A DNA stretch of 64,000 nt from positions 5,236-69,235 of the forward strand of contig JAPOVA010000010.1 in assembly GCA_026708385.1 (NCBI GenBank), given 5' to 3'. Source of the stretch: Simkaniaceae bacterium. GTDB taxonomy: Bacteria; Chlamydiota; Chlamydiia; Chlamydiales; Simkaniaceae. Position numbers and translations under genes: made by a program. A model generated the notes under the pieces. The model did not search any database and had not been told where the DNA came from. It worked only from the letters and a program-made list of their open reading frames with translations. Numbering within the stretch: position 1 is the stretch's first letter; the number at the start of each line of letters is the position of its first letter. Positions 34,342 to 37,426 of this stretch are shown piece after piece.

Positions 34342-34735
34342 CTACGGGCCTGCCGTCGCCACGGTACGCTGTTGCCACGCCGCACCGAGCTCTTCGTCGC
34401 GTAGATCCGGCGCATCCGTTCCGAACGTGCTCGTAGATCGGTCGCCAACCGATCCGCCCTCTCCGGCGCCTCCAATTCCCTCCGGACATACCCGCTCAGT
34501 CTCCCTCGATATCTCTTTCGCATGGGAGAAGGCGTCCAACGTGTCCGTCACTTTTTGACGGGACCCGGACCGAACCTCGAGTACCGAAAGAGACCGAACA
34601 GGGTGATTCTCACTACTTCTCCCACCGCCTCTCCCGCACCGACAATCATCCTCCACCCCTGCTCAAAGTAACAATCCGCGACCCTCTCATCCGTTTCGGA
34701 AGCGATCCGCCCACGAACCGCATCCATCTCCCCGA
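34342..34735 (-). pseudogene. 5'-truncated, frameshifted copy of the paralog at 37050..37574 (left direct repeat)
   Basis: 34353-34735 aligns with 37044-37426 at a constant 2,691-nt offset. It lacks the first ~49 codons. One extra C (aattccctcc versus aattcctcc) and at least one further frameshift split the reading frame. Confidence 0.75.
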
Positions 34736-34876
34736 GCCGGGTACTCTCCTTTCGCTCTATTCGCTCTACATGTCGGACCTACCGGCCGGAAACGTCAGCC
34801 GATCAACCATCTCCCAACCCAATACGTCCGGGGGGCTAAAAAATTTCTTACCCAAAGGGGAATACATACCGATAGT

Positions 34877-35539
34877 TTGGGTTCTCCATTTCTCGCAGTC
34901 AAAAATTACGTGCTAAAACATTCTCCCCACCGAACCGGAGCACCTCCCCTTTCGCCCGAAGCTATAAAGGCCATGATCCATCAACTCCGTCGGGGCAATA
35001 AGGGTGTCCGCGATCGGACGTTCATCATCCTTGCCTTTTGTTCCGCCATGCGCCTCTCCGAACTACCGGCTCTGCATATCGAAGATCTTACAATTCGCCC
35101 CGAGGGAATGAAAATCTTTGTTGGCGAACCTAAGGGAGGTCGCTCCTCCGGGGGAAGAACCGTCACCGTCTCCCGCGAGAACCACGAATTCCGCCCCGCA
35201 ACAAATGTGGAATCTCTCATCCGAAGACTGCAAAGCGATAAAGGGTCCCTTTTCCGGACCATCCCCAAGAAAAACGGCGACACCTTTTCCGATACTCGAC
35301 TCAGCTACGGGGGCGTTGTCCTGCTTTTCAAAGAAACTAAAGATAAAGCAGGGATCAAAAAAAACATTAGCCCCCACAGCACCGGAAGCGGACACATCAC
35401 ACAGGCATTGAAGCCGGGGAAAAGCACCGATCCGGTTCACAAAAATACCGGACACCGACCACTGCACTCTCTCCCGATCTATCTGCGGGAAGTAGATGGT
35501 TTCCAAAACAACTCGTCTCGGGGTTTGCTTGCCCCGTGA
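34877..35539 (+). pseudogene. Tyrosine recombinase (phage-integrase family) catalytic domain only, probably inactive
   Basis: FCSAMRLSEL (Arg I), PKGG (Lys), TGHRPLHSLPIYL (His/Tyr). The HxxR box reads HSTG (Arg lost). No N-terminal core-binding domain. Only a TTG start. Confidence 0.6.
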
Positions 35540-35542
35540 CAG

Positions 35543-36241
35543 TTACACATCAGTAACCGCCTCTTCGTGCTCCTGCGAAAAAGGGACGGGTGATGGGTCC
35601 CTCAACAACATTTCGAGGTCTTCAATCTGAGGATCTCTATTTTCGACCCTCCTCTCTACTACCCGAACTTGGGGAACTTCTGCTTCTTCTCTCCGACTCT
35701 TTCGACAACAGGTGGGAGTGCCCATCTCTTTCAGTTCTCTCTTTCCCTCTTGGGAGCAGAGCACACAGAAGCAACTCGTCATCATGATACTCACGGAAGG
35801 AATCACCGTAGAGCCAATCCCTATTCCGAATCCCACAACTCCCCCCACGGTCCAACCCAAGAACGACGCAACCACAATAGCCGGAACCGCCACACCCACG
35901 GTAACCCCCACGACGGCGCAGGCCTTCTTGATCTTACGTTCCAAGCTTTTTCTCTCTGCATATTCCCGCCCTGTGGCCGTAGGGGGTTGATGAGAAGGCA
36001 GGTGGGGCAACCGCTGATAACGTTCTGCGGAAGGGGCGGTAGGTGCACGGGGGGATGGTGGTTCCGAAGGTCCCGCAGGGGAGTGTTGAGAACTGCCGTC
36101 CTTATGAACCGGGGTAGGTAGGGCATAGGCAACCTCATCGACTCGCAAGGCAACCGTCCTTATTTCCGGCTGTGAAACGGGTTTATACTGCGGAGCGTGT
36201 CTTCCTCTCTCGTGAAAGTAAGGGTCGAATCCCGTAGCCAT
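35543..36241 (-). CDS. Inc-like membrane protein with bilobed hydrophobic domain and Pro-rich N-terminus
   Basis: AGGAGG 8 nt upstream of ATG 36241. Hydrophobic lobes VVGVTVGVAVPAIVVASFLGW and VVGFGIGIGSTVIPSVSIMMTSCFCVL are separated by a short turn. Charged C-terminus. Confidence 0.6.
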   Translation of the reverse strand: MATGFDPYFHERGRHAPQYKPVSQPEIRTVALRVDEVAYALPTPVHKDGSSQHSPAGPSEPPSPRAPTAPSAERYQRLPHLPSHQPPTATGREYAERKSLERKIKKACAVVGVTVGVAVPAIVVASFLGWTVGGVVGFGIGIGSTVIPSVSIMMTSCFCVLCSQEGKRELKEMGTPTCCRKSRREEAEVPQVRVVERRVENRDPQIEDLEMLLRDPSPVPFSQEHEEAVTDV

Positions 36242-36300
36242 AATTTGTTCCTCCTCGAAAAGCCGGTAAAGCCATAACACGGATAGGGCTTTGTAGCAAT

Positions 36301-36326
36301 AAAAAAGGCCGTCCACAGGGACGGCC
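36301..36326 (-). terminator. Intrinsic-terminator-like hairpin (GGCCGTCC-CTGT-GGACGGCC followed by T6 on the minus strand)
   Basis: Perfect 8-bp GC-rich stem at 36307-36314/36319-36326. A6 at 36301-36306 on the plus strand gives a T6 tail on the minus strand. Confidence 0.45.
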
Positions 36327-36351
36327 ACCTTTGATAACCGGGGAGAACCAA

Positions 36352-36999
36352 ATGACTCAGGAACAGATTTTCGCCACCATAGGAATGATCTTGCTCCCCG
36401 TTGTGGTCACTATCGTCGGATGCAAAGGGGCCGTCGTGCTGTTGGACAGCTCTTCCCGAAAACGGCAGATCGATCGCTTTCTCGAGCAGAATATCGATAT
36501 CAAAAACTCATTTAGCTTGCCAATATTGCACCATCCGTTTATGATGGACCGAAAGCCGTTGAAAGGGGGAATTGATATGACATCGGTCGACCCGCGTCCC
36601 GTATCCGAAACATTGGCGCTGGCCAAAAACATCTACAACGATCCCGACAGAACCGCGGCAGAAAGTGCGGCGGGCTTTCGGGAAACCGCCCGCAAGATAG
36701 CTATCGCCCAGCAAGCAATATTGAGCGATGCTCTGCTCTTTTGCTTCCTCGCCGGGGGATGTTGTGCTTTGGGGATCGCTCTCTTTCCCAAGGTTTCGTT
36801 CCCGTCGCTGAAACAGGGGATCCTAGCGGGGCTGATCGTCGGCGGTATCATCGGCCAGTTCCGGGCTAATCTCGGACTGCGCTCTCGAGTCATACGGCAA
36901 GAAAATGATCTCCGCGAACTCCGCAACCAACGACTCGATATGGCTTGCTTGATCGTCACGCAGGACCGATGGCTCGATTCCCGCGACCCCACCGGCTGA
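36352..36999 (+). CDS. Inc-like membrane protein (N-terminal TM plus central bilobed hydrophobic domain)
   Basis: GGGAGA 5 nt upstream of ATG 36352. MTQEQIFATIGMILLPVVVTIVG, then LLFCFLAGGCCALGIALFP...ILAGLIVGGIIGQF, then a coiled-coil-like tail. Confidence 0.55.
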   Translation: MTQEQIFATIGMILLPVVVTIVGCKGAVVLLDSSSRKRQIDRFLEQNIDIKNSFSLPILHHPFMMDRKPLKGGIDMTSVDPRPVSETLALAKNIYNDPDRTAAESAAGFRETARKIAIAQQAILSDALLFCFLAGGCCALGIALFPKVSFPSLKQGILAGLIVGGIIGQFRANLGLRSRVIRQENDLRELRNQRLDMACLIVTQDRWLDSRDPTG

Positions 37000-37043
37000 T
37001 CGAAAAAAATGTTGCTTACAACACTCTCGTCGTCGTATCGCCG

Positions 37044-37426
37044 TGGTCGCTACGGTGCGCTGTTGCCACGCCTCGCCGAGATCTTCGTCGCGTAGATCCG
37101 GCGCATCCTTTCCGAACGTGCTCGTAGATCGGTCGCCAACCGACCCACCCTCTCCAGTGCTTCCAATTCCTCCAGACATGCCCGCTCAGTCTCCCTCGAT
37201 ATCTCTTTCGCATGGGAGAAGGCGTCCAACGCGCCCGTCACTTTTTCGACGGGCCCCGGACCGGACCTCGAGTACCGAAAGAGACCGGACAGGGTGATGC
37301 TCACTACTTTTCCCACTGCCTCTCCCGCACCGACAATCACCCTCCACCCCTGCTCAAAGCAACAATCCGCGACTCTCTCATCCGTTTCGGAAGCGATCCG
37401 TCCACGAACCGCATCTATCTCCCCGA
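37044..37426. repeat. Right copy of the ~383-bp direct repeat (period 2,691 bp)
   Basis: Shared strings with 34353-34735 include gctgttgccacgcc, gtcgcgtagatccggcgcatcc, cgctcagtctccctcgatatctctttcgcatgggagaaggcgtccaacg and ccgtttcggaagcgatccg. Confidence 0.8.

Follow-up and report, generated by a model that had tools for sequence, protein, structure and literature searches.

A probable fossil DNA insertion with a degraded tyrosine recombinase next to type III secretion genes in an uncultured member of the Simkaniaceae

The window analysed here (a stretch of 64,000 nucleotides) comes from a Simkaniaceae metagenome-assembled genome, that of an uncultured chlamydia-like bacterium; it contains no Ns, and its long core genes are intact. 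A lineage-specific interval is bordered on the left by sdhB (33423..34202, plus strand) and on the right by sctT (39192..40037, minus strand), the last gene of a conserved sctJ...L-R-S-T block. In relatives, sctT is followed by a porin gene and suf genes and not by sdhB, which places the interval at a synteny breakpoint. Neither sdh genes nor any genes of the interval were found near approximately 130 related sctT loci, which bears out the original prediction that an accessory island separates sdhB from the type III secretion genes. One scan of GTDB genomes and two scans of JGI metagenomes for a sister genome returned nothing above 65% SctT identity and no relative of the gene P2 described below, and the closest relatives (65% SctT identity or less) share neither the P gene family nor the adjacency to sdhB. 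Exact-protein look-ups of P2, P3, IncB, SdhB, and SctS led to only this one sample.

Within the interval, local alignment of positions 34355-34735 with 37046-37426 gave 354 identical bases of 380 (93.2%) and defined a direct repeat of 381 nt. Repeats of about 383 bp with some nine matches in ten had been predicted to start at 34353 and 37044; the true ends lie 2 nt inside these positions, and the four shared strings that had been quoted are all present. The pair gave E = 8e-160 in a BLASTN comparison within the window, where no third copy was detected, and a repeat search of the window returned the same structure as three in-register blocks. The longest exact runs common to both copies measure 51, 34, 27, 26, and 23 nt. 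Because the copies differ by two 1-nt indels, both in homopolymers (an extra C at 34478 and a missing T at 34556/7 in the left copy), the offset between them is 2691, 2690, and then 2691; the predicted constant offset of 2,691 nt thus describes the overall register but is not strictly kept. The cassette between the copies is 2,310 bp long and occurs once in the window, with only the 381-nt segment repeated. The alternative first put forward, a tandem-duplication junction, is not supported because a single-copy cassette gives the pattern A-B-A' and not A-B-A-B.

The right copy (37046..37426, minus strand) is the 3' 72% of P2, an intact gene for a protein of 174 aa (37050..37574, minus strand), and comprises codons 50-174, the stop codon, and a further 4 nt, at which point the homology ends. 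The left copy (34355..34735, minus strand), here called P1ψ, is a fragment of a pseudogene that matches codons 50-174 of P2 and has no promoter. It lacks codons 1-49, is frameshifted by +1 at 34478 and by -1 at 34556/7, meets an immediate stop in the shifted frame, and has TGG where P2 has its TAG stop codon. Both descriptions agree with what had been read by eye, namely the 3' three-quarters of an intact open reading frame on the right and a copy without its first ~49 codons and with at least two frameshifts on the left. The differences between the copies are distributed 5/13/8 over the three codon positions, and 17-18 of 25-26 are non-synonymous (dN/dS 0.72), a near-neutral pattern. In the window no trace remains of a region upstream of P1ψ or of its 5' part.

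Three assemblies of the sample (SPIRE/ENA scaffold_12, the NCBI contig, and Logan contigs) agree on the sequence of every junction. The NCBI contig and scaffold_12 give the same linear order with an intact P2 and a broken left copy, and the Logan contigs, which are 100% identical to the window, between them cover each of the four repeat boundaries, with junctions 34735/6 and 37045/6 contained in a single contig (L077, 34512-37139). The Logan assembly breaks within both copies at a homologous segment of 62-63 nt, with L081 ending at 34448 and L079 at 37202. The repeat is real and belongs to a Simkaniaceae genome. As a separate observation, the four Logan contig ends that meet in this segment are also compatible with coexisting linear, deleted, and circular forms.

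The cassette begins at the left with a tyrosine-recombinase remnant of 220 aa (34877..35539, plus strand). It comprises the catalytic domain only, matching positions 3-167 of the 172 of Pfam PF00589 with 48.1 bits (cut-off 27.1; E = 1.5e-12). Its nearest annotated relatives are proteins of 325-373 aa to which the alignment starts only at residue 120-150, and the 120 best profile matches are all 302-398 aa long, most of them with an N-terminal PF02899 domain; some 105-140 N-terminal residues of the relatives are missing from the remnant. No N-terminal domain was found upstream of the open reading frame with Pfam, even at E = 10. The in-frame stretch from 34736 to 34876 (plus strand) is open but holds no start codon, and the homologous region is not preceded by any start codon. 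Weak BLASTP similarity to the end of the N-terminal domain of relatives extends as far as 10 codons upstream of the TTG at 34877, so the coding region probably ran on towards or past junction 34735/6. The 5' ends of the head-to-head P1ψ and recombinase remnant are both missing at one junction, 34735/34736.

Of the five catalytic residues checked, Arg-I, His-I, His-II, and Tyr are retained, but Arg-II is replaced by Gly (HSTG as against HSLR/HQLR in alignments with three relatives and XerA 4a8e), so that the HxxR motif of the tyrosine-recombinase signature (Arg-I, HxxR, His/Trp, Tyr) is broken. With no N-terminal domain, no start codon, and no Arg-II, the protein annotated at NCBI as 'tyrosine-type recombinase/integrase' (MCY3974276) is, by the residues it lacks, a non-functional remnant rather than a complete, catalytically competent integrase. 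The prediction of an integrase-bearing cassette was thus right as to the presence of recombinase sequence, but what the cassette bears is a dead, 5'-truncated gene. The best identity of the remnant to any protein was 33%, and a word-indexed homologue search with it found only itself. PHROGs returned the integrase domain as the sole match, and the two phage matches to the recombinase were both weak. Chlamydial plasmid integrases of the pGP7/8 type were considered as a source and set aside; no chlamydial relative appeared in the organism breakdown or the best 25 matches of the plasmid search, nor in the 120 best profile matches.

Two further genes make up the cargo, as predicted, and both encode proteins with long hydrophobic segments. 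One, for an orphan protein of 261 aa (35543..36328, minus strand), has a bilobed segment of about 60 residues at 133-193; the other, for an orphan protein of 222 (or 215) aa (36331..36999, plus strand), has a hydrophobic N-terminal segment at residues 10-42 and a bilobed one at 122-175. In a Kyte-Doolittle scan, these two bilobed segments correspond to the domain of ~40-60 residues by which Inc proteins are recognised, and the 261-aa and 222-aa proteins thus look Inc-like. No Pfam or NCBIfam match was obtained for the Inc-like genes of the locus, and no relative of the 261-aa protein was found in related loci. A foreign composition was sought by profiling the cassette against its surroundings, as had been suggested, and no clear signal emerged in GC content (0.53-0.54, as against 0.546 in the window) or in tetranucleotides (distance at the 88th percentile). 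A search of the cassette ends for terminal inverted repeats, target-site duplications, and microhomology gave nothing convincing, and no Rfam match to a structured RNA was obtained between 33.5 and 39.5 kb. A tRNA gene was discarded as a target, the only one being 24 kb away.

On the far side of P2 lies P3 (37759..38295, minus strand), an older tandem paralogue of 178 aa with 35% protein identity to P2 and 73-75% DNA identity over the 5' region; the two genes are spaced 715-721 nt apart. They belong to a family of seven members found only in this genome, of which P2 is the most divergent, and a word-indexed homologue search with P2 found only itself. The other members are full-length, about 30% identical, and located at two other loci, always as adjacent pairs and never as triplets. 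Since these loci hold pairs, P3 plus P2 is the complement to be expected here, to which P1ψ comes as an extra. Central hydrophobic stretches can be read off the family alignment in P0016, P0018, P0020, and P0021. P2 has lost these lobes, and neither it nor P1ψ shows the bilobed domain. P2 is a putative secreted, host-facing protein. P3 and the other members (~30% identity) were too diverged to polarise the substitutions between the repeat copies, except in one family-conserved motif, where P2 carries a derived change (RAD to RVG).

A headless, frameshifted gene copy adjoins a dead integrase fragment and two membrane-protein genes, and the locus is for this reason an ordinary relic of DNA inserted long ago and not a mobile element that still works. 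The description of the event as recent was not upheld. The near-neutral differences between the copies indicate that it is not, and the 7% divergence, two frameshifts, lost stop codon, and truncated recombinase without its catalytic arginine tell the same way. As to origin, we favour, with a probability of about one half, an integration scar of the kind seen at E. coli icd-e14-icdC that was later immobilised by a deletion beheading both P1ψ and the recombinase gene; the Campbell-type integration first proposed is thereby retained. In this account, a circular element would have carried a recombinase gene, two cargo genes, and a copy of the 3' part of a P-family gene. By Campbell-type integration into a chromosomal P gene it would have supplied a 3' end that kept this gene whole, while the original 3' end was pushed to the opposite side of the insert. 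One later deletion would then have taken the recombinase promoter, its N-terminal domain, and the DNA up to the present end of P1ψ, after which the remnant would have lost Arg-II and P1ψ would have drifted neutrally.

An origin of this type is favoured because the homology ends 4 nt past the stop codon, just what an element must carry to keep its target gene intact, and because the layout matches the e14 locus, the other family loci hold pairs, and the interval is lineage-specific at a synteny breakpoint. As in duplications of the 3' end of a target gene, P2 is made whole by one copy, the other copy is a fragment with no promoter, and the shared segment passes the stop codon. A comparison with sister genomes for an empty site had been proposed; none of the collections searched contained such a site, a sister genome, or another copy of the element, so integration is read from the anatomy of the locus alone. 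Counting against integration are the near-neutral differences between the copies, the derived RAD to RVG change, which lies in P2, the composition of the cassette, which is not clearly foreign, the absence of chlamydial relatives of the recombinase among the best matches, and the second event, a deletion, that is needed.

The same anatomy might instead be the residue of a paralogue array, which we regard as possible but rather doubtful. P3, P2, and P1 would have stood in tandem, a recombinase element would have inserted between P2 and P1, and a deletion would have beheaded P1 and the recombinase gene; the repeats would then be ordinary paralogues and not an integration duplication. The family does grow by tandem duplication, as the P3-P2 spacing and the pairs at other loci illustrate, an end of homology at stop+4 is also expected of a tandem unit boundary, one deletion would account for two head-to-head genes cut off at a single junction, and near-neutral differences are in keeping with a duplicate that began identical and then decayed. 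However, this history takes duplication, insertion, and deletion, one event more than integration, and has the inserted DNA begin within a few bases of the unit boundary; moreover, the other loci hold pairs, not triplets, and nothing is left of the upstream region and 5' part of P1. That the arrangement is an assembly artefact, with A-B-A' threaded via shared k-mers from an uninterrupted P gene plus a 2.69-kb circle, or from two strain variants, is improbable. The organism was seen in one sample only, the k-mer-based Logan assembly breaks in both copies at the homologous segment, and its graph topology is compatible with the linear form or with an empty site plus a circle. Against this, two contig-level assemblies give the same order, and a single Logan contig spans junctions 34735/6 and 37045/6 at 100% identity. 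All defects (two frameshifts, lost stop, missing head) lie in one copy, while the alternative phase spreads them over two molecules, and a 2.69-kb circle with a dead recombinase and no replication gene could not persist.

Readings in which the locus is still at work fare poorly. Were the 220-aa protein short by nature and able to excise or invert DNA at the repeats, one could point to the existence of short tyrosine recombinases, to a weak NCBIfam match of residues 28-75, far below the cut-off, to a 198-aa invertase model, and to the four catalytic residues retained. Yet Arg-II is Gly, every close relative exceeds 300 aa and has an N-terminal DNA-binding domain, similarity runs upstream of any start codon, and the repeats, which are direct and differ by 7%, do not have the form of short identical cores, so an active cassette is hardly credible. 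Equally far-fetched is a silent donor, in which P1ψ would be kept as a promoterless cassette diversifying P2 by segmental gene conversion in the manner of the pilS and msp2 pseudogenes, even though it is 5'-truncated, promoterless, directly oriented, and near an expressed copy of putatively host-facing type from which it differs mostly by non-synonymous changes. There is a single donor, the two frameshifts lead to an immediate stop, and the non-synonymous excess is what neutral decay predicts (dN/dS 0.72; 5/13/8 not far from even). It is very unlikely that the cassette still cycles between integrated and excised states or that P1ψ swaps segments with P2 via the repeats; if so, the locus would give this intracellular bacterium a means to switch or diversify a secreted, host-facing protein whose gene lies next to those for type III secretion. 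The cassette is, judging from its recombinase sequence, no longer able to move by site-specific recombination, and only host homologous recombination would now be expected to excise or delete it. The repeats (381 nt, 93%, longest exact run 51 nt) are only a weak substrate for RecA-type recombination, which would delete a 2.69-kb unit and leave a chimeric P gene.

The preferred integration scar most resembles the e14 prophage (and phage 21) at icd in E. coli K-12, where the integrated element likewise lies between direct repeats of the 3' end of a single protein-coding gene; the copy contiguous with the 5' part leaves that gene whole, and the other (icdC) is a promoterless C-terminal fragment. 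As measured in MG1655, the e14 repeat is 216 nt long with 87% identity, consists of the last 55 codons plus 51 nt, and recurs at a spacing of 15,204; in both systems the homology stops soon after the stop codon (51 nt past it in e14, 4 nt here). Recombination between icd and icdC on loss of e14 takes the element out and produces a chimeric gene (PMC13626634). Unlike the present cassette, which has a headless recombinase without Arg-II, e14 has intact intE and xisE and is excised on SOS induction; its repeats are gapless with nine synonymous to two non-synonymous differences, whereas those of the present cassette differ by two frameshifts and the loss of a stop codon, with a dN/dS of 0.72. With such near-neutral differences there is no sign that the two ends were ever both functional alleles. 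The present cassette is also only 2.3 kb long, with two cargo genes and no phage genes. Deletions between the directly repeated paralogues manB and cpsG in the E. coli long-term evolution experiment (PMC13626634) offer a second parallel, in that two diverged direct gene copies flank DNA that is lost, with formation of a chimeric gene, on homologous recombination between them; there the two copies are whole, functional paralogues, whereas here one is a decayed fragment.

The recombinase shares a catalytic-domain fold signature, a C-terminal GF..N tail, and 28-33% identity with the PF02899+PF00589 'site-specific integrase' family on plasmids of Bacillota and Alphaproteobacteria, but it lacks the N-terminal domain, Arg-II, and the start codon, and has no close relative. 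The silent-cassette systems pilS, vls, and msp2 differ in having several open-frame promoterless donors and a mosaic expression site, as against the single donor with two frameshifts here. The Inc and type III effector families of Chlamydiota resemble the genes of the locus in their small size, poor conservation, and long bilobed hydrophobic segment, in forming adjacent paralogues beside type III secretion genes, and in being confined to one lineage, although P2 and P1ψ have lost the hydrophobic lobes.

The locus is of modest importance as the footprint left where a tyrosine recombinase mediated the acquisition of genes next to those for type III secretion in an uncultured member of the Simkaniaceae, and it makes no open question testable. 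It defines a seven-member Inc-like gene family private to one genome. Both the footprint and the family fit the established picture in which chlamydial effector and Inc repertoires turn over fast by duplication, insertion, and decay. For annotation, the two broken open reading frames into which P1ψ is divided at NCBI, the 'hypothetical protein' entries MCY3974274 and MCY3974275, are pieces of a single pseudogene.

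The direct repeat at 34355-34735 and 37046-37426 was confirmed by local alignment, in which 354 of 380 aligned bases were identical (93.2%), and the most plausible reading of the locus is a fossil scar of integration, one more instance of an already familiar architecture. BLASTN within the 64-kb window gave the repeat pair E = 8e-160 and returned no third copy. The original prediction described a real feature and its structure correctly, except that the true repeat ends lie 2 nt inside the starts that it gave, and that the offset of 2,691 nt is nearly but not exactly constant, because a repeat search resolved three blocks in register, spaced 2691, 2690, and 2691 nt apart. 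Both single-base indels between the copies are in homopolymers (an extra C at 34478 in the left copy and a T absent at 34556/7). Exact identity extends over runs of up to 51 nt, the next longest being 34, 27, 26, and 23 nt, and the substitutions comprise 21 transitions and 5 transversions.

As predicted, the right copy is part of an intact gene and the left copy is headless and frameshifted. The right copy contributes codons 50-174, the stop codon, and 4 bases of a minus-strand ORF of 174 aa (37050-37574), here called P2. The left copy, the pseudogene P1ψ, begins at the equivalent of codon 50 and carries two frameshifts, the first of which meets a stop immediately to leave a 59-aa ORF ending PVKK; P1ψ also has TGG in place of the TAG stop of P2. 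Because the window is free of Ns and its long core genes are unbroken, general assembly noise is an unlikely source of the frameshifts. Between the two copies, 8 codon differences are synonymous and 17-18 non-synonymous; the differences are distributed 5/13/8 over the codon positions, and the Nei-Gojobori dN/dS is 0.72, a near-neutral pattern that is the signature expected of at least one copy drifting unconstrained. The NCBI ‘hypothetical proteins’ MCY3974274 (75 aa) and MCY3974275 (59 aa) are frameshift-bounded ORFs of this single pseudogene (34342-34727).

The 2,310-bp cassette between the copies (34736-37045) contains a plus-strand recombinase gene (34877-35539, 220 aa from a TTG) that matched the Pfam tyrosine-recombinase catalytic domain over positions 3-167/172 (E = 1.5e-12). 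The nearest relatives among annotated proteins are plasmid integrases from Alicyclobacillus, Paenibacillus, and Neorhizobium (350, 325, and 373 aa; 28-33% identity), which could be aligned with the window protein only from residue ~120-150 on. The best 120 matches of a profile search were all 302-398 aa long, most with an N-terminal PF02899 domain; among these 120 listed matches no chlamydial relative was found, and identity to the window protein was at most 33%. The reading frame is open upstream across the junction at 34735/6 and has no start codon, BLASTP similarity to the Neorhizobium protein extends 10 codons 5' of the TTG, and no N-terminal domain upstream of the ORF was matched in Pfam. 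In an alignment with the three relatives and Pyrococcus XerA (4a8e), Arg-I, His-I, His-II, and the tyrosine were kept, and the second arginine was replaced by glycine (HSTG versus HSLR or HQLR). Given the truncation, the open frame without a start, and this replacement, the gene is a remnant, truncated and catalytically crippled. It is annotated at NCBI as a ‘tyrosine-type recombinase/integrase’ (MCY3974276, truncated and without Arg-II), and the three ‘genes’ of the public annotation here are reduced to one pseudogene and one recombinase remnant.

The cassette also carries two orphan genes, one of 261 aa on the minus strand (35543-36328) with a bilobed hydrophobic segment at residues 133-193, and one of 222 aa on the plus strand (36331-36999) with long hydrophobic segments at residues 10-42 and 122-175. 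Neither protein had a match in Pfam, NCBIfam, or PHROGs. A long bilobed hydrophobic segment is a hallmark of chlamydial inclusion-membrane (Inc) proteins, and both products may be Inc-like. Cassette composition is unremarkable, with a GC content of 0.53-0.54 versus 0.546 for the window, somewhat lower GC3 and codon adaptation, and a tetranucleotide distance at the 88th percentile.

Directly upstream of P2 lies an older paralogue, P3 (37759-38295, 178 aa), with 35% protein identity and 73-75% DNA identity over the 5' region. A HMMER search of 1.84 billion representative proteins, with a profile built from P1ψ, P2, and P3, matched just four further proteins besides window entries (P3 and three P1ψ fragment ORFs) and one repetitive oomycete protein of 2,356 aa. 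All four belong to the genome of the window, where they form two more adjacent pairs: OXF02_04550/04555 on scaffold_168 and OXF02_05535/05540 on scaffold_440, placed at L142 8001-9589 and L144 4860-6118 on other scaffolds. No recombinase was found near either pair, and the search returned no convincing member from other genomes, consistent with a private, Inc-like multigene family. Its members share the motifs MTSCREVMD..IE at the N-terminus and EW.RAD..A..LR.R.ER at the C-terminus, together with two central hydrophobic lobes. These lobes have been lost from P2 and P1ψ, which diverge most from the rest. At the RAD motif that P1ψ and the remaining family keep, P2 has RVG, so P2 too has changed after the copies split and, though intact, may be in decay or taking on a different function.

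P2 is carried by SPIRE/ENA scaffold ROBB21-1_SAMN13943204 scaffold_12 (68,376 nt) and likewise by the 70,040-nt NCBI contig of the ‘Simkaniaceae bacterium’ metagenome-assembled genome (locus tags OXF02_018xx), in which consecutive accessions follow the window order of sdhB, two fragments, recombinase, 261-aa, 215-aa, P2, P3, 141-aa, and sctT. In Logan, a k-mer-based assembly of run SRR10996906, three contigs jointly span all four repeat boundaries: L081 (29524-34448, 100% identical to the window), L077 (34512-37139, 100% identical, with both inner junctions inside), and L079 (37202-48289, 99.99% identical). Only 34449-34511 and 37140-37201 fall outside these contigs; they are the same homologous 62-63-nt segment of both copies, the most variable of the repeat, bordered by exact shared runs of 34 and 51 nt. 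Four contig ends meet in this segment, and the Logan graph alone would also allow a 2.69-kb circle beside an empty site, an ambiguity at such repeats worth remembering when reading short-read metagenome assemblies. The assembled linear form is nevertheless far more likely, because both contig-level assemblies give it, all defects in linear phase fall in one copy, and a circle without a replication gene and with a dead recombinase could not persist.

Of the two origins originally proposed, a tandem-duplication junction is unsupported because the cassette is single copy, and Campbell-type integration is favoured by the anatomy. A circular element bearing a replacement 3' end of its own target gene would, in one event, set recombinase-bearing DNA exactly where it now lies, between the two copies; the homology runs only slightly beyond the stop codon, as needed to keep the target gene intact; and the other family loci are pairs, so that P1ψ would be an extra piece. 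The layout is also that of e14, the cryptic prophage in E. coli icd, where the repeats are likewise the 3' part of one gene flanking integrated DNA. The e14 repeats of MG1655 are 216 nt long, 87% identical, gapless, and 15,204 bp apart; they span the final 55 codons and a further 51 nt, and show 9 synonymous and 2 non-synonymous codon differences. The main rival, still plausible, starts from three tandem paralogues, puts the insertion later, between P2 and P1, and ends with the same deletion, one event more than integration takes. That deletion concerns the inner boundary: the recombinase gene (plus) and P1ψ (minus) are arranged head to head, and the 5' ends of both are missing at the same junction, 34735/6. 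A single deletion would account for both truncations, so this boundary would most simply be the scar of a deletion and not the core of an attachment site.

Unlike e14, the locus combines a near-neutral substitution pattern, frameshifts, and a dead recombinase, which point to an old, decayed insertion and not to the recent event originally proposed. All that the locus could still undergo would be host homologous recombination between the 93%-identical repeats, with loss of 2,691 bp and fusion of the two copies into a chimeric P gene. For e14, a recent paper describes that, on loss of the element, icd and the displaced fragment icdC recombine to give a chimeric gene (PMC13626634).

Chlamydial core genes lie on both flanks, with sdhCAB and a long greA on one side and sctT-S-R, sctL, sctJ, recJ, and a fused secDF on the other. 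The comparison set, drawn from GTDB genomes and JGI metagenomes, comprised ~130 related chlamydial sctT loci (best SctT identity 65%), and no sdh genes, recJ, cassette genes, or P-family genes were found within 10 kb of sctT in any of them. In the six Simkaniaceae loci nearest to that of the window, a ~370-aa gene in 1-7 tandem copies directly follows sctT, and four conserved genes come next (for example, L002 10875-18506, L088 10868-19930, and L012 10880-17118). The window homologues, a Legionella_OMP/MOMP-like porin (1774-2889) and sufS-D-C-B (3214-7919), lie >30 kb from sctT, so the genome has been rearranged at this point relative to these six loci. Since the sctT surroundings of the relatives are unlike the window, the interval 34.2-39.2 kb is lineage-specific DNA at a synteny breakpoint, in keeping with the ‘accessory island’ of the original prediction. 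Porin copy number is strongly variable between the relatives (1-7), and the window has a single porin gene.

Between the divergent P3 and a lipoprotein-like 141-aa ORF lies a perfect hairpin (38484-38517; GGGAGGGAAGATTCCG tc CGGAATCTTCCCTCCC) whose stem is 16 bp long and which had no Rfam match. The 141-aa ORF (38645-39070, between P3 and sctT) starts MLKKYVSLSAILVVAGC, a signal of lipoprotein type that includes the lipobox-like VAGC, and had no family match and no relative in the related loci. At 8070-9329, a 419-aa leucine-rich-repeat protein matched several Pfam LRR families and is plausibly a eukaryote-like, host-interaction protein.
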